A stretch of DNA of 64,000 nucleotides from Acidobacteriota bacterium. Lineage in GTDB: Bacteria > Acidobacteriota > Terriglobia > Terriglobales > Acidobacteriaceae. Positions 1,686 to 10,467 of the stretch are shown piece by piece. Below the pieces are notes generated by a model. That model was not told the origin of the DNA. It saw only the letters and a program-made list of their open reading frames with translations, and did not search any database. Within the stretch, counting starts at the first letter, position 1; every line of letters begins with the position of its first letter. The translations under genes were made by a program, and so were the position numbers. Location: NCBI GenBank assembly GCA_021846985.1, contig JAJZVX010000018.1:297-64296 (forward strand), written 5' to 3'.

Positions 1686-3506
1686 ATGACTATGACAGAA
1701 CGCAAATCGCTTCGAAGCGCTGTGTGGGGACGTTCCGTCCTCGTCGCAGGCGCACTCCTCCTCTTCGCCAGTGCCGCCTTTGCTGGCGGCCGGGGAAAAA
1801 TGGCCCCTGATCTCGCGCGCAAGAACTCTGCCGATCAGGTCGATATCATCGTGCAGTACAACCAGGCGCCCACCTCAGCCCGCCACCAGAGAACCCTGAG
1901 TCATGGCGGAACCTTCCGGCGCAACTTGCCCTATCTGAGAGCAGGCGTTTACCGTCATGTGCCCGCTTCCGCGCTCACTGAAATCGCCAACTATCCCGAT
2001 GTGGCCCACGTCTCCATCGACCATCGAATTCATGCGGCCGGCAACACGCCCATCCTGCTCGACTACCACAACGAAACCATCGGCACGGCCGCCGCGGGCT
2101 CCTATGGTTTCGATGGCACTGGCGTCGGTGTCGCTATTATCGACAGCGGCCTTTCCTCCGTGGACGATCTTGCCAACGCGCACGTCGTTTACAGTCAGGA
2201 CTTTGTCGGCGACAACGGCGGCAGCGCTACCGACCTTTACGGCCATGGCACCCACGTTGCCGGAATCATCGCCGGCGGCGGCCAGGATTCCACCGGTCCG
2301 CAGGATTCCTACACCTTCAAGGGCATCGCCCCCGGCGTCAATCTCATCAACCTCCGCGCCCTCGACGCCAACGGCGACGGAACGGACAGCAACGTCATTG
2401 CCGCTATTCAAACCGCCATCCAGCTCAAGGATACCTACAACATCCGCATCATCAGCCTCTCGGTGGGACGGGGCGTTTTTGAGAGCTACACGCAGGACCC
2501 GCTCTGCCAGGCTGTCGAACAGGCATGGCAGGCTGGCATCCTCGTCGTTGTCGCCGCCGGAAACGAAGGCCGCAACAACTCCGCCAACAACAACGGCTAT
2601 GGAACCATCACCGCCCCCGGCAACGACCCCTACGTCCTTACCGTCGGCGCCATGAACACCCTGGGAACCGCCGATCGCACCGACGACATTCCCACCAGCT
2701 ACACCTCGCGGGGACCCACGCTCTTTGATCAGGTGGTGAAGCCCGATCTCGTGGCCCCCGGCAACCTGATCGTCTCTCTCTACCGGCCCGCTGAGACGCT
2801 GGTGCAGGAACTGCCGAGCAACATCGTCCCTCTCTCCCTTTATCAACCCAACGGTGGCGCCGTTGCCTCGCCCAGCTACTTCATCCTGAGCGGAACCAGC
2901 ATGGCCACGCCGATGGTGAGCGCCGCGGCGGCACTCATGCTGCAACAGAACCCCAGCCTGACCCCTGATCAGATCAAGGCGCGGCTCATGATTACGGCCT
3001 GGAAAAACTTCATTCCGTACAGCACGGCCACTGATCCCACCACGGGCATCACCTATAACCTCGAAGCTGATCTCTTCACGGTCGGCGCCGGCTACCTCGA
3101 CATCCAGGCGGCCTTGAACGACACCGACCTCGCTCCCGCCACTGCCGGCAGCGCCATGTCTCCCTACGCCTCTATCGACGCCAACGGCAACATCGTCATC
3201 GCCAACCGCAGTTCGTCTGCTAGCTCCATCGTCTGGGGCACCAGCATTGTCTGGGGCACCTCGGGCGTCTGGAGCAACAGCATCGTCTGGGGCACCAGCA
3301 TCGTATGGGGCACCAGCACGACGGGCGAATCCATCGTCTGGGGCACCAACACGCTGGCTCCCGACTCCATCGTCTGGGGCACCAGCATCGTCTGGGGCAC
3401 CGGCACCAGCAGTGGCCAGAGCATCGTCTGGGGCACCGGATCCAGTAGCGGCCAGAGCATCGTCTGGGGCACCGATACGGCCCTTGGCGCAACCGACCTT
3501 CCGTAG
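1686..3506 (+). CDS. Secreted S8 (subtilisin/AprX-like) serine peptidase with C-terminal tandem SIVWGT repeats
   Basis: Signal peptide and I9-like prodomain. Catalytic triad motifs GVAIIDSG, YGHGTHVAG and SGTSMATP; oxyanion motif VVAAGN. Confidence 0.95.
   Translation: MTMTERKSLRSAVWGRSVLVAGALLLFASAAFAGGRGKMAPDLARKNSADQVDIIVQYNQAPTSARHQRTLSHGGTFRRNLPYLRAGVYRHVPASALTEIANYPDVAHVSIDHRIHAAGNTPILLDYHNETIGTAAAGSYGFDGTGVGVAIIDSGLSSVDDLANAHVVYSQDFVGDNGGSATDLYGHGTHVAGIIAGGGQDSTGPQDSYTFKGIAPGVNLINLRALDANGDGTDSNVIAAIQTAIQLKDTYNIRIISLSVGRGVFESYTQDPLCQAVEQAWQAGILVVVAAGNEGRNNSANNNGYGTITAPGNDPYVLTVGAMNTLGTADRTDDIPTSYTSRGPTLFDQVVKPDLVAPGNLIVSLYRPAETLVQELPSNIVPLSLYQPNGGAVASPSYFILSGTSMATPMVSAAAALMLQQNPSLTPDQIKARLMITAWKNFIPYSTATDPTTGITYNLEADLFTVGAGYLDIQAALNDTDLAPATAGSAMSPYASIDANGNIVIANRSSSASSIVWGTSIVWGTSGVWSNSIVWGTSIVWGTSTTGESIVWGTNTLAPDSIVWGTSIVWGTGTSSGQSIVWGTGSSSGQSIVWGTDTALGATDLP
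3225..3473 (+). repeat. Coding tandem repeat: 9 exact SIVWGT hexapeptides plus 1 degenerate (SGVWSN), with short S/T/G-rich spacers
   Basis: Read directly from the translation. DNA unit is (tcc/agc)at(c/t)gt(c/a)tggggcacc, with synonymous variation. Confidence 0.97.
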
Positions 3507-3690: not shown

Positions 3691-5091
3691 ATGCAAGCCG
3701 ACCCATCCCGCTCCGGTTCCGCGCTGCCCGGTCTCCCTCCGCACCCGGATGCCGGCCCATTCCGCCTCCTCGACACCATCGCCGAAACTGGGCATGGCAT
3801 CCTCTACCGCGCCGAACGCGCCCACGACTTCACCCAGGCCGTCGCCGTCAAACTTCCGCGCCTCCAACCGTCTGACGGCGCCGTTGCGCTCCAGGCCGCC
3901 ACCGACCGCCTGCGCGACGAACAGCGCTCTCTCGCCCCGCTCCAGCACCCCGCCATCGCCGCTCTCGTCGATGCCTCCTTTGATGCCCGGCCCCTGCCCT
4001 GGCTAGCCGTCGAATACATCGAGGGTCTGCCCCTCGACCGGTATTGCGCACTCGAGCGCCTCGGCCTGCGCCAGCGCATCGCGCTGGTCTGCGCCGTTCT
4101 TGCCGCCCTGGATCACGCCCACCAGCGCCTCGTGGTGCACGGCGATCTGAACTTCAGCCGCATCCTCATTGACCGCGACGGCCTTCCCCATCTTGTTGGT
4201 TTCCGGCCCTCTCGCGAACTGCTGCACCCTCCCGGCGCTGAGGATCTTTCATTTGTCTCTCCCGAGAGCCTGGCCGGCCAGCCGCTTACCACTGCGACCG
4301 ACATCTATACCGCCGGTCTCCTGCTCTGCCTTCTGCTCACCGGCAAGCATCCTTTCGAGCAAGATCGCGGCGACTCCCGGCGCTGGGCTCACGCCATTCT
4401 CTGTTTGCCTCCTGCACGGCCCAGCTCGCTTTGCTCCGGCGCTCTCGGCCGCAGCGTTCGCGGCGATCTCGACGCCATCCTCCTGCGCGCGTTGGCCCCG
4501 CTCCCCGCCGCCCGCTACGCCACTGCCGGCGCCTTTGCCGAGGATCTGCAGGCCTTTCTCCACGGCCTGCCCGTGGAAGCACGCAACGGAGGTCCGCTCT
4601 ACCGGCTGCGGCGCTTTGCCGCGCGCAACCGGTTGCTATCCTCCGCCGCTGCGCTTCTCCTGCTCGTGCTTCTTGCTTCCGCGGCCGTGGTGGCTCGCCA
4701 GGGCATCCAGGCCCGCCGCGCCCGCATCCAGGCGCAGGCCCGCCTCCACGACATGCAGCGCCTCACCGGATCTCTCCTCGGGCAGTTCTCTTCCGATCTC
4801 GACCGTCTTCCGGGTTCCGCACCCGTTGAGAATCTCCTCCTTGCGCGCGCCGGCCAAACCATGGATCAGCTCGCCCGGCAGGCCGGCAACGACGCTGTTC
4901 TTCGTCAGGAGATCGCCCGGGAGTATCTGCGCCTGGGCCAGCTGCTGCTGCGTGAGGGCGATGCCGCCGCGGCGCAGGCCGCGGCGCGCAAGGGCCTTGA
5001 CGTCCTGCAGCCTCTGCCCGCCTCGCGGCGCGCCGCCGCGCCTGTCCAGGGCATTGCCGAGCAACTCGTCCGGCTGCGTGATGGCCGCTGA
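3691..5091 (+). CDS. Ser/Thr kinase-like pseudokinase with TM helix and short TPR-like tail
   Basis: ATG at 3691 after AGAAGAGAG. The kinase fold is recognisable (VAVK, VEYIEG, SPE, TDIY), but the Gly loop reads IAETGHG, the catalytic loop HGDLNFSR, and DFG is replaced by VGF. TM segment LLSSAAALLLLVLLASAAVVA. Confidence 0.85.
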   Translation: MQADPSRSGSALPGLPPHPDAGPFRLLDTIAETGHGILYRAERAHDFTQAVAVKLPRLQPSDGAVALQAATDRLRDEQRSLAPLQHPAIAALVDASFDARPLPWLAVEYIEGLPLDRYCALERLGLRQRIALVCAVLAALDHAHQRLVVHGDLNFSRILIDRDGLPHLVGFRPSRELLHPPGAEDLSFVSPESLAGQPLTTATDIYTAGLLLCLLLTGKHPFEQDRGDSRRWAHAILCLPPARPSSLCSGALGRSVRGDLDAILLRALAPLPAARYATAGAFAEDLQAFLHGLPVEARNGGPLYRLRRFAARNRLLSSAAALLLLVLLASAAVVARQGIQARRARIQAQARLHDMQRLTGSLLGQFSSDLDRLPGSAPVENLLLARAGQTMDQLARQAGNDAVLRQEIAREYLRLGQLLLREGDAAAAQAAARKGLDVLQPLPASRRAAAPVQGIAEQLVRLRDGR

Positions 5092-5171
5092 CAGCTCTCT
5101 CCTTCGCCTGTTTCCGGAAACTCACGCCGCAAGGGCATCCCCGAGCAGGCGTATCCTTACCCGCGCCGCCG

Positions 5172-7832
5172 TCACTGCCCCCCGTGCAGGCTCCTCAATA
5201 GACTCTCTGCGCCGCGCCGGATTCGCCTTCCGGCCTGCATTCCCAGGATCTTCGTCACCGAAGCCCGCGCCGCCGCCGTCTCATGACAGGCCGCCTGCGC
5301 CCGCGCCAGCGTCAACAAAAACTCCGGATCAGAGCCGTGAATCAGCGCCACGGCCCGCGACGAAAACGCCAGCGCCCGGCGCGGATCGCGCAGGCCCTTG
5401 ACTTGTGCGTCCAGCAGGTACATCGCCGCGCTGTCCAGATCGTCCGGCGAGGCTTCCGCGCTCTGCGCCAGTTGCAGCGAGAGCGCCAGGCCCTTACGCT
5501 CGTGCTCCTCTGCCTGCGCCGTCTGCTTCAGTCGTTCTTCCACACGAGCCCGCGCGATCAGAGTTTCCGCATAGTGCTCCTGCCAGATGCGATTGCCCGG
5601 GTCGCTCCGCAGCGCGGTGGTGAGCACTTCCGTCAGCCGCTCGTAGTCCCGCTGCGCCGCATTCCAATCCGACAGCGCCTCGTGGCTCTCGCCCTCGTCC
5701 AGGTAGATGCTCGCCATGTCCTGCTTCAGGCGCATGTCCAGCGGATCCTTTTCCGCATAAGACCCCATCACCTGCCGCGCCTGTTCCAGTTCCTTCAGGG
5801 ATTCCCTGAACTTGCCTTCGTAAAAATAGCAGTCGCCCAGTTTCTGGCGCACCACGCCCCGCAGCCGCTTGATCGAAACCGGCGCGTTTGGAATGCGCCC
5901 CAGCATCGCCAGCGCCTCTTCATATTGCTTCTGCGCCGTCTCGGGCTGCGCCTCGCTCAGCAGGTTGGCGATCTTGATGTCTCCCAAGGCAATCGACCGC
6001 ACCGCCCGCGTATCCTGCGCGTTCCGCGCCAGCGCCGCCCGGCTTTGCCCGATGGCTCGCTGGTAGTTCTCGATTGCCTTGTCCGTATCCCCAAGGCTCG
6101 ACGCTCCGTGCAATCCATACTCGTCGCCCATCAGCGCATACAGCGTCGCTGCTTCGTGCAAATCGGCGGGCTCGGCCCCTGGCGCGCTCAGCAGCTTTTC
6201 GCAAAGCGCCGCCGCCGCCCGCGCATGGTCCAGCGCCTGCTTCGTCTGCCCGTCGCCAAACTCGATCTCGCTCAGGCTGCGCTGGGCAAACTCCGCGTGC
6301 CGCAGCGCCCGGGCATCGTCCGGATGCAGGCGCAGCGCATCTTCCGCAATCGAAATCGCCCGCTCCACCGAACGGATCGCCTCCGGCGCCTCTCCCAGGT
6401 TGTCCTGGTAAGGACTGCCCATCACGTTGCCCATCCGCGTGTACGCATTCGCCAGGTCGAGCTCAAAGTCGAAATCGCCCCGCGCGTTCTGCGCCATCCC
6501 GTCCAAAAACTCCAGCGCCTCCGCCGCCACTTTGCGTTGCGTCTCCGTTGCTCCCGGCACTTCGCCCAGGCGGTCGTAGAAGTCCGTCACCAGAAATGTC
6601 GCCAGCAGCCGCACATTCCGCATCTCTTCGCGCGCCCGCAGCTCCTCGCCGCGTGCCGTCCTCGCGGCCCGCAGCGAGATGTCCGCGCCGGCCGCCAGCA
6701 CCGCCAGCAGTGCGGCGCCGGCCACCACCCGCTCCCGGTTGCGCCGCAGCAGCTTCCACGCCCGGTAAAGCCGCGCCGTCTTCCGTGCCCGCACCGGCCG
6801 ATGCTCCATCCACCGCTGCAGTTCCGCCGCCAGCTCCGTGACCGTTGCGTAGCGACCCTCCGGCTCGGCGCGCATTGCCTTGCCCGCAATGGCCCGCAGA
6901 TCCTCGTCTTCGATCTCCGCCCAATCCGCGGAGGCTGTCTCTTCGCCGGCCGCGCCGGTTCTGAAGGCGAGTGTTGTCGCCGCCGCTGGAACATGGCCCG
7001 TCAGCAGCCGGTAGAGCGCCACGCCCAGCGAATAAACATCTGACGCCGCCGTGCATGGCTCCCCCCGCCTCTGCTCCGGGCTGGCGTACTGCGGCGTAAA
7101 GGCCGCCATCGGCGCCGCCTGTTCTTCTCCGCCCGCCAGCAGAGTGGCGGCGCCAAAGTCCAGCAGCTTCACTTGCCCATCCGCGGTCACCAGCACATTC
7201 CCGGGCTTCAGGTCGCCGTGCAGAATGCGGTTCCGGTGCGCATAGGCCACCGCGTCACACAGATCCAGGAACAGGCGCGCGATCTCGCGCGCACGCAAGC
7301 CCGCGCGCTCGCAGTATTGGTCCAGCCGCTCGCCGCGGATGTACTCCATCACAAAGTACGGCTCGCCCTCATCGCTCACGCCGCCGTCGAGCAGGCGTGC
7401 AATGTGTGCATGCCGCAGCACCGCCAGCGCCCGCCGCTCCTCCAGGAAGCGCTCCTGCAACTGCGGGGAGTAGAGCCGCGTCCCCACCACCTTCAGCGCC
7501 ACCTGCTCGTCGTCGCCGCCCGCGCCCGAGGCGCGTACGGCCGCGTACACGGCCCCCATTCCGCCGCGCCCAATGAGCGCAACCACCCGGTAGCTGCCCA
7601 GCGTCCTTCCCATGCAGGGATGCGCCGCCGTCTTCCGCGCGCCTTCCGGCGGGCGTTCCACCTCTTGCGCTGAGGCCACCAGCGACAGGACATCCTCAGC
7701 CAGGCTCGCATCCTCGCCGCACCAGGCCCGCACGCTGGCCGTGCGTTCCTCCGCCGTGCCCTCCAGATCCAAAGCGCGGTGAAAGATCTCTTCCACCCGC
7801 CGCCAGCGATCCGCCGCCTCCGCGTCCATCAT
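5172..7832 (-). CDS. Hanks-type Ser/Thr protein kinase with N-terminal helical domain, TM segment and C-terminal TPR-like repeats
   Basis: Intact motifs IGRGGMGAVY, VALK, HGDLKPGN, DFG and TPQYASPE; long alpha-helical repeat C-terminus. Confidence 0.93.
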   Translation of the reverse strand: MMDAEAADRWRRVEEIFHRALDLEGTAEERTASVRAWCGEDASLAEDVLSLVASAQEVERPPEGARKTAAHPCMGRTLGSYRVVALIGRGGMGAVYAAVRASGAGGDDEQVALKVVGTRLYSPQLQERFLEERRALAVLRHAHIARLLDGGVSDEGEPYFVMEYIRGERLDQYCERAGLRAREIARLFLDLCDAVAYAHRNRILHGDLKPGNVLVTADGQVKLLDFGAATLLAGGEEQAAPMAAFTPQYASPEQRRGEPCTAASDVYSLGVALYRLLTGHVPAAATTLAFRTGAAGEETASADWAEIEDEDLRAIAGKAMRAEPEGRYATVTELAAELQRWMEHRPVRARKTARLYRAWKLLRRNRERVVAGAALLAVLAAGADISLRAARTARGEELRAREEMRNVRLLATFLVTDFYDRLGEVPGATETQRKVAAEALEFLDGMAQNARGDFDFELDLANAYTRMGNVMGSPYQDNLGEAPEAIRSVERAISIAEDALRLHPDDARALRHAEFAQRSLSEIEFGDGQTKQALDHARAAAALCEKLLSAPGAEPADLHEAATLYALMGDEYGLHGASSLGDTDKAIENYQRAIGQSRAALARNAQDTRAVRSIALGDIKIANLLSEAQPETAQKQYEEALAMLGRIPNAPVSIKRLRGVVRQKLGDCYFYEGKFRESLKELEQARQVMGSYAEKDPLDMRLKQDMASIYLDEGESHEALSDWNAAQRDYERLTEVLTTALRSDPGNRIWQEHYAETLIARARVEERLKQTAQAEEHERKGLALSLQLAQSAEASPDDLDSAAMYLLDAQVKGLRDPRRALAFSSRAVALIHGSDPEFLLTLARAQAACHETAAARASVTKILGMQAGRRIRRGAESLLRSLHGGQ

Positions 7833-8413
7833 GCCCAGCTCGCCGCACCCGACAATTCCCGGTACAGCCAGCTCCGCGCAAAGCGCAGGTCCCGCTCCGC
7901 GGTCGCCGTTGAAATTCCCAGCGCCTCCGCCGCTTCTCCGGTCGTAAAGGACAGAAAAAAGCGCATCTCAATCAGCCGCGCCTTCCGCGCATCCACGGCC
8001 TCCAGCCGCTCCAGTGCCCGGTTCAGGTCCACGATCCGCTCCGCCTCCGCCCCGATGAACGCCATGTCGTCGGAAAGTTCCATGCGGATCCACTCGCTCC
8101 CTCCGCGGTGCTTGGCCAGCCGCGCCCGCGCATAATCCGTAAGGATGTTGCGCATCAGCATGGCTGCAAACGTATAGAAGTGTTCGCGGTCGTTCCAGCT
8201 TGCTTTCTTCTGCCGCACCAGGCGCAGATACACCTCGTTCAGCAGCGCCGTTGGTTGCAGCGTATGGTCCTCCCGCTCGCGGCGCATCAGCCCCATGGCA
8301 ATCCGGTGCAGTTGTTCGTAGATCAGCGGAGCCAGGCTCTCGAAGGCCGCGGCATCGCCCTCGTGCCAGCGTTGCAGCAGTTGGGTAATTTCACCTTGCT
8401 TTTCTGGACTCAT
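7829..8413 (-). CDS. ECF sigma factor of the kinase-associated type (TIGR02999/ECF43-like)
   Basis: MSPEKQGEITQLLQRW...DHTLQPTALLNEVYLRL...HFYTFAAMLMRNILTDYAR...KHRGG. Its stop overlaps the kinase ATG (ATGA). Start placed at ATG 8413 rather than 8557. Confidence 0.93.
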   Translation of the reverse strand: MSPEKQGEITQLLQRWHEGDAAAFESLAPLIYEQLHRIAMGLMRREREDHTLQPTALLNEVYLRLVRQKKASWNDREHFYTFAAMLMRNILTDYARARLAKHRGGSEWIRMELSDDMAFIGAEAERIVDLNRALERLEAVDARKARLIEMRFFLSFTTGEAAEALGISTATAERDLRFARSWLYRELSGAASWA

Positions 8414-8612
8414 GGCGGGGTTTTGAGTGCCTTTAGTATGCAGGAATCCGGCTGGCCTTGCCAAAGCCTTTGTTGCGGCTTGCTTCCCTTTGACCAAAAA
8501 CCTCTTCCCCGTGAGGGAGTTTTCCCGCTTTTGCCGCTGTACTGGGCAAACGGCCACGCCGCCACCCCCGGCGGCGAGGCGTCAACGTCAGGCGCTGGGA
8601 GTGAGAAATCAC

Positions 8613-9157
8613 ATGGCAAGGGTAGAAAAGCGGCTTCGGCATCTCTTTGTGCGGTTCATGCTGGCGGGGTTTCTATTGGGCGCGGCCGCCACGGCTCAGG
8701 CGGGCGCACAGGCAACGGCGACGGCACCTTCCAGCCGGCGGTGAGTTCCGATACCGGCATCTCCGGCCTCTACCAGGGCCTCATCTACCTGGCGCCGGCC
8801 AGGACCACCGCAGACGGCCGCACCGATCTTGTGGCCTTAAGCGCCTCGACCAATGATCAGCTCGTAGAAACGCTCTGCAACGGCCGCACCCAGCAGGTGA
8901 GCTTCTCCAGCCTGGCCATTCCCGGTCCAACTGCGCAGCATAACGTGGTCGCCTCCTATGCCGGAGACTCCGCGTATGCCGCTTCCGTCTCGCCTGCGCT
9001 CGGCGCCTGTGGCGGCGGCTCTTCGAGTTCAACCTCCACCGGCTCCGGCGGCACGCCTCTGGGAACCAGCTCCGTGTCTGTCTCCGCTACCACATCCACC
9101 ACGGTTGGCGGCAGCACCACGCAGAGCGCGCTCCTTACCATCACCATCATCCAATAG
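8613..9157 (+). pseudogene. Internally deleted, frameshifted remnant of an FG-GAP/VCBS plus Ig-like (Big_3-type) surface protein
   Basis: The signal-peptide frame (MARVEK...LLGAAATAQAGAQ) stops at 8744. An overlapping frame carries GNGDGTFQPAVS, DGRTDLVA and HNVVASYAGDSAYAASVS, and ends ...LLTITIIQ. Confidence 0.65.
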
Positions 9158-9239
9158 CTCCTCGGCGGGCCGGTCCCGCTTTCCGCCTTGCGCGGAAGGC
9201 TGGACCCTGCCTGCCGCAAGTTGCAGGCCATGGCCTCTT

Positions 9240-9446
9240 ATGAACTCCACTCCGGAACAACGCCGCTGGCAGCTGGTGGAATCCATCTTCCACCAGATGG
9301 AAGCTTGCCCGGCGCATCTGCGTGCCGCCCGCCTGCGCGAGATCTGCGCCGGCGACGACGCCCTCGCCCGTGAGGTCGAGTCGCTCCTCGATTGCTCCGA
9401 GCGTCTGCGTGCCGCTTCCAATCCGCCCGCCCGCTCCGCGCCGTAA
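9240..9446 (+). CDS. 68-aa stand-alone homologue of the N-terminal helical domain of the neighbouring kinase
   Basis: MNSTPEQRRWQLVESIFHQ...RAARLREICAGDDALAREVESLL aligns by eye with kinase residues RWRRVEEIFHR...RTASVRAWCGEDASLAEDVLSLV. Confidence 0.75.
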   Translation: MNSTPEQRRWQLVESIFHQMEACPAHLRAARLREICAGDDALAREVESLLDCSERLRAASNPPARSAP

Positions 9447-9618
9447 GCCTGCTGCCGCATCCTGTCTCGCGCCGCCGCTGGACTTGCGCCGCACGGCTCT
9501 TTCCGGCGGGCTCGCTGTGACCAAAGTCGCTGTGATCCGGCGAGCCGGCCCGGTATCCTCAGATCATCGGATGTGCGGCTGTGCATACGTTCTGCGCATC
9601 CGCCTCTCGGAGACAGGC

Positions 9619-10467
9619 ATGCAAACCATCGCGCAGGCAGCGCCGGCCCAAGCATCGAATCGCCCCAAAGTCTATCTTCCGCGCGAGCACGGGGCTACCG
9701 CGATGCTCCTCACGCCCATCCTCGGGGTCGCCATCCTAGCCCGGGCCTGGCATTGGAGCGAGCTGGCAGTCCCCATGGCGGCCTTTGCCGCCATGGCGGC
9801 AAAGGATCCTGCCGTCCTGCTGGTGCGCCAGCAGTTTGTGTGGAAGCGCAAAAGTCCCGAGTCCTCAGGCGCCCTGCGATGGCTCCTGGGGTGGATCGCT
9901 CTACTCATTGCCAGCGTCTCCGTCCTGCTGGTCACTTGGCCGCTCGATGCTTTTCTGGCCATCGGCGCAGGCGTTGCCGCCTTTGGCTGCGTGGCAATCG
10001 CCGTCAATCTCGGAAATCGCCAGCGTTCGACACTCTTCCAGATTGTCAGCGCCGCGGCGCTCACTTCCACATCCCTGGCAACATGCCTCTCCGCTACGGG
10101 AACCGTCGCGCCCTGGTGCTGGTGGTTCTGGGCCTTGATCGCGATGCAAGCCAGCGCCGGAATCCTCGTGGTTCACGCCCGCCTCGATGCCCGCATTGCT
10201 CTCCGCAAGGCCGCGGCCGCAAGCCGGCACTATCGCTACGCGGCCCAGGCAGTTCTGGCCGTGCTCCTGTGCGCGGCGGTCGTCGCCATCCTCCTCAGGC
10301 ATGCCTCAATCGCGCTGGCACTGGCGCTGGCCGTGGCTGGCTACGCCTATGACCTGGCTCGGCAGAACCGTCCCGAATCGCTTCAAATGCCGCTCAAAAC
10401 AGTGGGACAGCAGGCGCTCATGCTTTCGGCCCTCTATTCCCTTTTGCTGATCGCGGGCCTCTGGTAA
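9619..10467 (+). CDS. YwiC-like membrane protein
   Basis: LPREHGATAMLLTP motif and multiple TM helices; ATG 9619 chosen as start. Confidence 0.8.
   Translation: MQTIAQAAPAQASNRPKVYLPREHGATAMLLTPILGVAILARAWHWSELAVPMAAFAAMAAKDPAVLLVRQQFVWKRKSPESSGALRWLLGWIALLIASVSVLLVTWPLDAFLAIGAGVAAFGCVAIAVNLGNRQRSTLFQIVSAAALTSTSLATCLSATGTVAPWCWWFWALIAMQASAGILVVHARLDARIALRKAAAASRHYRYAAQAVLAVLLCAAVVAILLRHASIALALALAVAGYAYDLARQNRPESLQMPLKTVGQQALMLSALYSLLLIAGLW

Follow-up and report, generated by a model that had tools for sequence, protein, structure and literature searches.

The question raised by this locus is why an open reading frame of only 68 codons should consist largely of the N-terminal module of a Hanks-type Ser/Thr kinase, with no kinase domain behind it. 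The mini-ORF lies between an Ig-like ORF (8613-9157, +) and ywiC (9619-10467, +) in the window, that is, the whole stretch of 64,000 nucleotides analysed here. The host is an Acidobacteriaceae/Terracidiphilus-like bacterium with a GC content of 63%, and the metagenomes in which it occurs come from mine drainage, sediment and hot springs. Public contigs with the exact mini-ORF sequence, retrieved by an exact-sequence look-up, have it annotated as a gene. The features on which the argument rests are collected in Table 1.

Table 1. Features of the mini-ORF locus, in window coordinates.
Feature	Position	Strand	Remarks
Degenerate pseudokinase, 466 aa	3691..5091	+	Without N-terminal module; ETGHG for G-loop, HGDLNFSR for HRDLKPxN, VGF for DFG
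Left 14-nt near-repeat CCCGCTCCCCGCCG	4497..4510	.	Within pseudokinase gene (codon ~270); partner of L064 deletion junction
Hanks-type Ser/Thr kinase, 886 aa	5172..7832	-	N-terminal module (residues 9-52, nt 7677-7808), kinase domain, TM segment, TPR
ECF sigma factor	7829..8413	-	TIGR02999 197.7 bits (cut-off 126); PF07638
Left copy of 9-nt direct repeat	8508..8516	.	Borders the 859-bp deletion allele
Small secreted Ig-like gene	8613..9157	+	Probably frameshifted; signal peptide and FG-GAP/Big_3_5-like part in different frames
Mini-ORF, 68 aa (MNSTPEQRRWQLVESIFHQMEACPAHLRAARLREICAGDDALAREVESLLDCSERLRAASNPPARSAP)	9240..9446	+	ATG at 9240, TAA at 9444-9446; intact frame
Homologous core, three-helix N-terminal module (residues 5-51)	9252..9392	+	BLASTP, HMM, AF2, GC by codon position
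Right copy of 9-nt direct repeat CCCGTGAGG	9367..9375	.	Bounds the deletion allele 8508-9366
Mini-ORF tail, 17 codons + stop	9393..9446	+	No family similarity; family alignment, GC2
Right 14-nt near-repeat CCCGCTCCGCGCCG	9430..9443	.	L064 deletion junction; comparison with L064
Conserved block TGTGACCAAAGTCGCTG, then -10-like TATCCT	9517..9533	+	Upstream of ywiC, marks start of ywiC unit; alignment of 8 genomes

BLASTP aligns residues 9-50 of the mini-ORF with residues 9-52 of the adjacent 886-aa kinase (19/45 identical, E=1e-5), and a six-frame search of the whole 64-kb window finds a single match to the mini-ORF, at 7808-7659 (E about 1e-4). A profile built only from kinase N-termini that had been found independently via the sigma gene, and that does not contain the mini-ORF, gives it 56.8 bits, and genuine kinase N-termini score 62 +/- 11 bits on the same sigma-adjacent profile when each is left out in turn. 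A second family profile made without the mini-ORF gives it 54.6 bits. Its resemblance to the kinase module therefore reflects real homology and not chance. Apart from deviations at E21 and R31, the mini-ORF carries the module signature (P)ERW..VE.L(Y/F)H.AL......R..FL...C.GD..L..EVESLL, and its ATG coincides exactly with the start of the family members. AF2, run with a 56-sequence alignment, predicts helices at residues 5-21, 25-35 and 40-60 (pLDDT 86.2, pTM 0.68), in agreement with the bundle of three (to four) antiparallel helices described for PknS. Similarity to the family ends at about residue 51. The first-pass annotation had read the mini-ORF as a free-standing copy of the kinase N-terminal module that aligns with the kinase, with the shared pattern RW..VE.IFH...R....R..C..D..LA..V.SL, and then stops; on all these points it was right.

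The two parts of the mini-ORF differ in composition. GC by codon position is 0.75/0.45/0.80 in the homologous core, which is typical of coding sequence. GC2 rises to 0.78 in the tail, which is atypical of coding sequence, and the F-x-E-x-P-A motif usual in the family alignment is absent there. The codon-usage score of the mini-ORF (-0.08) falls below the 5th percentile of real-gene windows (0.07). It has no Shine-Dalgarno motif, and neither a promoter-like or terminator-like site of its own nor flanking repeats or IS ends were found. In the family alignment E21 and R31 occupy positions that are hydrophobic in most members, position 21 being L in at least 90% of them and position 31 usually F.

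The module itself is widespread. In most of the sigma-anchored loci it was detected ahead of the kinase: 13 loci have it immediately before a kinase on the same strand, or at a truncated end or the end of a contig, and another 3 have it on a kinase of the opposite strand. In every intact sigma locus examined, the kinase domain follows within about 80-170 nt of the module. Kinases without an adjacent sigma gene also carry it (L027, L029-L031). The family profile further matches residues 6-118 of PDB 9EED (9eed_A; E=2.7e-15), which is Xanthomonas citri PknS, a Hanks kinase that phosphorylates the ECF43 sigma factor EcfK (PMC13147305). [quoted passage not shown] Nine tandem copies of the module precede the kinase domain of the 1156-aa Hanks kinase P0121, and two copies each are present in P0123, P0124, P0127, P0137, P0197 and P0238. 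Because it occurs nine times in tandem in one kinase and twice in several proteins, the module is an autonomous, independently folding and duplicable unit, and in tandem it may serve as a multivalent docking array. Neither Pfam nor NCBIfam has a model for the module, Foldseek against the PDB returns nothing at E<=1, and the papers searched contain nothing on its function. The view of the first-pass annotation that the module is typical of kinases beside TIGR02999-type sigmas, and that its role is not established, is borne out.

The sigma factor beside the kinase is of the TIGR02999 type, as had been supposed, and its stop codon overlaps the start codon of the kinase gene. Its region 2.2 contains HTLQPTAL (TLQTTAL in relatives), which is like the QTTA phospho-Thr motif of ECF43. 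ECF43 sigmas have a Thr-containing QTTA/STTA motif in place of the acidic RNAP-contact motif (PMC13147305, PMC8999054), and anti-sigma factors are typically absent from kinase-associated ECF groups (PMC7826278). When compared with the features given for such pairs in these three papers, the locus has no acidic DAED in region 2.2, a Thr-containing Q-x-T-A, an adjacent Hanks kinase and no co-encoded anti-sigma factor. Because the Thr motif in region 2.2 occurs together with a PknS-type module on the adjacent kinase, the locus is, as judged from its sequence, an ECF43-like sigma/Hanks-kinase pair with putative phospho-activation. The region 2.2 motif would thereby connect TIGR02999 sigmas with the class activated by phosphorylation. 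The sigma of the window and most orthologues in the set examined (L032-L063) read (H)TLQ(P/T/A)TAL in region 2.2. A sigma-70-like promoter was the only one found for the sigma gene itself; a promoter motif common to the sigma gene and the mini-ORF was considered and rejected, nothing of the kind being present near the mini-ORF.

The surroundings of the mini-ORF do not follow this pattern. Unlike the family architecture, it does not stand before a linker and a kinase domain, and it is homologous to only one part of a longer and otherwise invariant gene architecture. It is neither directly downstream of nor co-directional with a TIGR02999/PF07638 sigma gene: the start of the sole sigma gene in the window lies 827 bp away on the opposite strand, and profile scans found no sigma remnant upstream of the mini-ORF. 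Likewise, tblastn and profile scans of 9100-9800 find no kinase-like codons after the mini-ORF in any frame. Some 70 bp separate the mini-ORF stop from the conserved ywiC promoter, which together with the ywiC leader takes up 9510-9618; the decayed kinase codons that the first-pass annotation had envisaged in 9447-9618 are not present. With no kinase codons behind the mini-ORF and the conserved ywiC promoter setting in at about 9510, the truncation appears to be clean. Several candidate relics in this region were rejected. The peptide 'VAVIRRAG', considered as a G-loop remnant, belongs to the conserved ywiC block. Some of the best local alignments to kinase subdomain XI do fall in tail residues 47-68, but their scores are not above those of shuffled sequences (p 0.08-0.9). 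A 14-nt match between the mini-ORF tail and the pseudokinase gene is out of frame, and so is not a coding relic but microhomology only.

In the TGTGACCAAAGTCGCTG block the core GTGAC-N5-GTCGC is nearly invariant, and a -10-like TATCCT/TATTCT follows about 20 nt further on (window 9517-9560). Both elements are kept upstream of ywiC in eight Acidobacteriaceae genomes despite differing ywiC neighbourhoods, and together they look like a conserved operator plus promoter.

A profile search gave 257 short proteins and an exhaustive search 437 representatives (E<=1e-3). P0070, P0101, P0038 and P0015 are frameshifted kinases from long-read assemblies, with the rest of the kinase visible in another frame; P0079 is cut by an IS element and lies directly after a PF07638 sigma gene; P0076 and P0122 end at composition breaks or near contig ends. 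In 33 further short matches the tails are heterogeneous, frameshift-like or chimeric. None of these matches points to a conserved stand-alone family, and every short homologue with an inspected context is a broken kinase. As far as the data reach, stand-alone orthologues of the mini-ORF do not exist, an outcome that the first-pass annotation had itself named as speaking against its functional reading. The best non-self relatives of the mini-ORF are 55-61% identical, and because none exceeds 61% there is no parent gene on record. A second copy of the module is also absent from the two closest sigma-kinase orthologue loci (sigma 81%, kinase 55% identical).

Comparison with relatives shows that the mini-ORF is not conserved. 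With rbsD as synteny anchor one syntenic relative, L064, is found; ywiC, used in the same way, has other neighbourhoods in 20 genomes, and three further anchor look-ups led to four loci, all in unrelated contexts. L064 is a sister lineage (PurA about 98% and YwiC 96% identical at the protein level; dS about 0.1-0.2). When window 4497-9443 is compared with L064:11640-11860, L064 is found to lack 4,933 bp (window 4511-9443), and codon about 270 of the pseudokinase is joined to window 9430. Of the mini-ORF only 17 nt are left in L064; the missing segment also contained the C-terminal half of the pseudokinase, the kinase, the sigma factor and the Ig-like gene. Since the pseudokinase continues natively in the window, it is L064 that carries a deletion, and since the sigma factor and the kinase were lost with it, the whole sigma/kinase module is dispensable in L064. 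The 3' end of the mini-ORF already lay beside the ywiC leader before the L064 split. Over roughly 0.075 substitutions per neutral site, no disrupting substitution is expected with a probability of about 0.56, a figure that covers substitutions alone, assumes that the truncation predates the L064 split and would be lowered by indels. Too little time has passed since the split for decay to be expected through substitutions alone.

A second deletion is found within the population itself. In two sediment metagenomes about 40% of the local depth belongs to an allele that has lost 859 bp (8508-9366), and with them the Ig-like ORF as well as codons 1-42 of the mini-ORF. The joint 8507->9367 has a depth of 19.4 in run X2, where the flanks have about 48-50, and of 5 in run X8, where they have 13-15; a drop in depth over 8487-9396 matches this joint. 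A co-occurring variant strain has only two SNPs within the mini-ORF, R8H and G38D, both non-synonymous, and no synonymous one. The mini-ORF is unchanged in the mine-drainage and hot-spring strains. Because the strain contigs are at least 99.6% identical in the region, with no change inside the mini-ORF, there is no power for dN/dS. The mini-ORF is thus absent from orthologous loci and shows presence/absence variation among close relatives, as looked for in a gene remnant. As to signs of constraint, it has neither a stop nor a frameshift and its profile score is normal, its codon score is low, and the only two SNPs are both non-synonymous. The metatranscriptome runs located contain almost nothing of this organism and so give no usable coverage.

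The upstream neighbour has probably not remained intact. The signal peptide of the Ig-like gene (MARVEKRLRHLFVRFMLAGFLLGAAATAQA...) stops at 8744 and the FG-GAP/Big_3_5-like body runs to 9157, the two being separated by a single frameshift that is identical in independent assemblies. In the hot-spring strains the Ig-like start codon is mutated (8614 T>C). In runs X2, X8 and X9, contigs that agree with the window as far as 8480, or starting at 8985, run on into unrelated sequence, which in one of them is at least 1.5 kb long. The sediment population may thus have a third structural allele, in which part of the Ig-like ORF region is replaced.

These observations are best explained if the mini-ORF is a leftover. 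It is probably the orphaned 5' end of a lost paralogous sigma-coupled Hanks-kinase gene; we infer that the ancestor was a full-length kinase and that what is left of it now has no selected function. Such a relic would retain residues 1 to about 52, with the start codon and all of the three-helix module preserved. The linker, the kinase domain and the sensor part would have gone in a deletion or a rearrangement, and this event would also have moved the ywiC promoter close to the present stop, at a distance of no more than about 70 bp. The surrounding stretch, which also holds the frameshifted Ig-like gene and the degenerate pseudokinase, would be decaying by microhomology-mediated deletions. 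The mini-ORF would have no conserved role, and its frame would still be open on account of its shortness and of a fairly recent truncation. Should it be transcribed and translated, a folded three-helix bundle would result, any effect of which would be incidental competition for the partner that the module has in full-length kinases.

The relic explanation is supported in that intact sigma loci have a kinase domain after the module and the mini-ORF has none, and in that two independent deletions, one in L064 and one in the 859-bp allele, have affected it. Both known SNPs are non-synonymous, the codon score is low, the tail has its aberrant GC2 and a Shine-Dalgarno motif is missing. E21 and R31 stand at usually hydrophobic positions, and the neighbouring genes are broken. 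Consistently, the searches point to no conserved stand-alone family and to no second copy in the closest orthologue loci. Against it stand the intact frame and the ATG at the family start position, as well as the profile score, which lies inside the functional range, and the confidence with which the fold is predicted. The break falls precisely in the inter-domain linker, where a random truncation would fall in only a few percent of cases. The 3' end was in place beside the ywiC leader before the L064 split, and so the frame has possibly been open since. Finally, neither a parent gene nor an upstream sigma remnant turned up in the searches. Because it is most likely an ordinary gene fragment, the mini-ORF itself matters little.

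An alternative that we consider unlikely is that the mini-ORF encodes a functional lineage-specific mini-protein, in which case the free module would compete with full-length kinases for a partner, be it the sigma factor, a kinase dimer interface or another factor, and, as a decoy or dominant-negative, would dampen or buffer the activation of the sigma factor by phosphorylation. Such a protein would account for an intact ORF with a canonical start, a complete domain and a confident model, for a truncation exactly at a domain boundary and for a profile score within the range of functional modules. It would also suit a module that is autonomous and duplicable, an ORF that is unchanged in mine-drainage and hot-spring strains and a 3' end that predates the L064 split. 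However, no orthologues were found, and the ORF is deleted in the sister lineage and in about 40% of one population. Its SNPs are two non-synonymous to none synonymous, its codon usage is atypical, and no ribosome-binding motif, promoter or terminator of its own was found. The literature is silent on binding of the module to a sigma factor, and the module also sits on kinases without an adjacent sigma gene. A young lineage-specific regulator that titrates the partner of the module (sigma or kinase), and so tunes phosphorylation-dependent sigma activation, is therefore a doubtful reading; if true, the locus would be a natural experiment revealing what a widespread module does.

The more specific proposal of the first-pass annotation, a decoy or anti-sigma-like protein, is unsupported. 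The mini-ORF has no anti-sigma match in Pfam or NCBIfam and no Foldseek match to an anti-sigma structure, the best hit being a catalase at E=1.7. The ZAS motif H-x3-C-x2-C is absent from it: there is H18-x4-C23 and a further C36, and no CxxC. The anti-sigma analogy fails every test run, and the lack of orthologues and the loss of the ORF in L064 and from a large part of one population also speak against it. What stands of that interpretation is the free copy of the module, its association with TIGR02999 kinases and the statement that its role is not established; the decoy or anti-sigma part falls.

It had also been suggested that the mini-ORF completes the truncated pseudokinase in trans. According to this explanation a former kinase would have been split into these two, and the halves would still cooperate, the mini-ORF supplying the module that the pseudokinase lacks. 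The parts are complementary without overlap, since the mini-ORF stops within the linker and the pseudokinase sets in about 20 residues ahead of the kinase core, and the pseudokinase is under some constraint (dN/dS 0.28 against L064). However, the order is wrong for a simple split: on the strand that the two share, the 5' part is found 4.1 kb downstream of the 3' part, and the sigma-kinase pair separates them. Moreover, the pseudokinase has its own upstream intergenic region, in which inspection reveals an apparent terminator hairpin of the preceding gene, the L064 deletion affects both parts, the L064 pseudokinase is also frameshifted, and similarity rankings give no phylogenetic link between the mini-ORF and the pseudokinase. 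Completion in trans is very improbable.

The pseudokinase gene, which converges on the kinase gene, shows some features of its own. The dN/dS value was obtained over codons 18-181 of the 466-aa ORF, despite the degenerate motifs, and strain L001 has an indel near 4081-4122. The 604-aa gene upstream of it ends in an 18-nt tandem repeat, CATCGTCTGGGGCACCAG (3227-3474, about 12 copies), which encodes the (S)IVWGT(S) peptide repeats of its C-terminus.

That the mini-ORF is a chance ORF with a fortuitous resemblance to the kinase can be dismissed, for although spurious ORFs are abundant in high-GC DNA and two long antisense ORFs overlap the mini-ORF, these overlapping ORFs have no family support, and the 55-57 bits from profiles without the mini-ORF, together with 437 database representatives at E<=1e-3, already refute it.

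With an orphaned kinase 5' end as the preferred explanation, the wider interest of the locus is the module itself, which is widespread and duplicable and is common to PknS. It heads Hanks kinases beside TIGR02999-type sigmas in Acidobacteria as well as X. citri PknS. Should the free copy prove active, it would lead straight to the partner of the module.

Among known systems, anti-sigma factors (ASD/ZAS) and sigma mimics such as PhyR resemble the mini-ORF only in being small helical proteins near an ECF sigma gene. The broken kinases of acidobacterial MAGs (P0079, P0076, P0045) are closer to it: they are 60-120 aa long and combine the module with an unrelated or frameshift-like tail, as the mini-ORF does. 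However, the disrupting IS element is visible in P0079 and the rest of the kinase in P0070, P0101, P0038 and P0015, whereas no remnant is left beside the mini-ORF; in addition, P0079 is preceded by a sigma gene and the mini-ORF is not. In the multi-copy kinases P0121, P0123 and P0124 the module copies run into the kinase domain or its start within the same polypeptide, and the remaining two-copy matches (P0127, P0137, P0197, P0238) are short fragments that end before any kinase domain. PknS (residues 1-81; 9EED construct 1-364) has the same sequence module as the mini-ORF, its three to four predicted helices resemble those predicted here, and the region 2.2 motif of its partner sigma contains Thr and is of the same kind as that in the sigma of the window. 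In PknS, however, the module is part of a full-length transmembrane kinase, whereas the mini-ORF stands alone, runs opposite to the sigma gene and can be dispensed with in related genomes.
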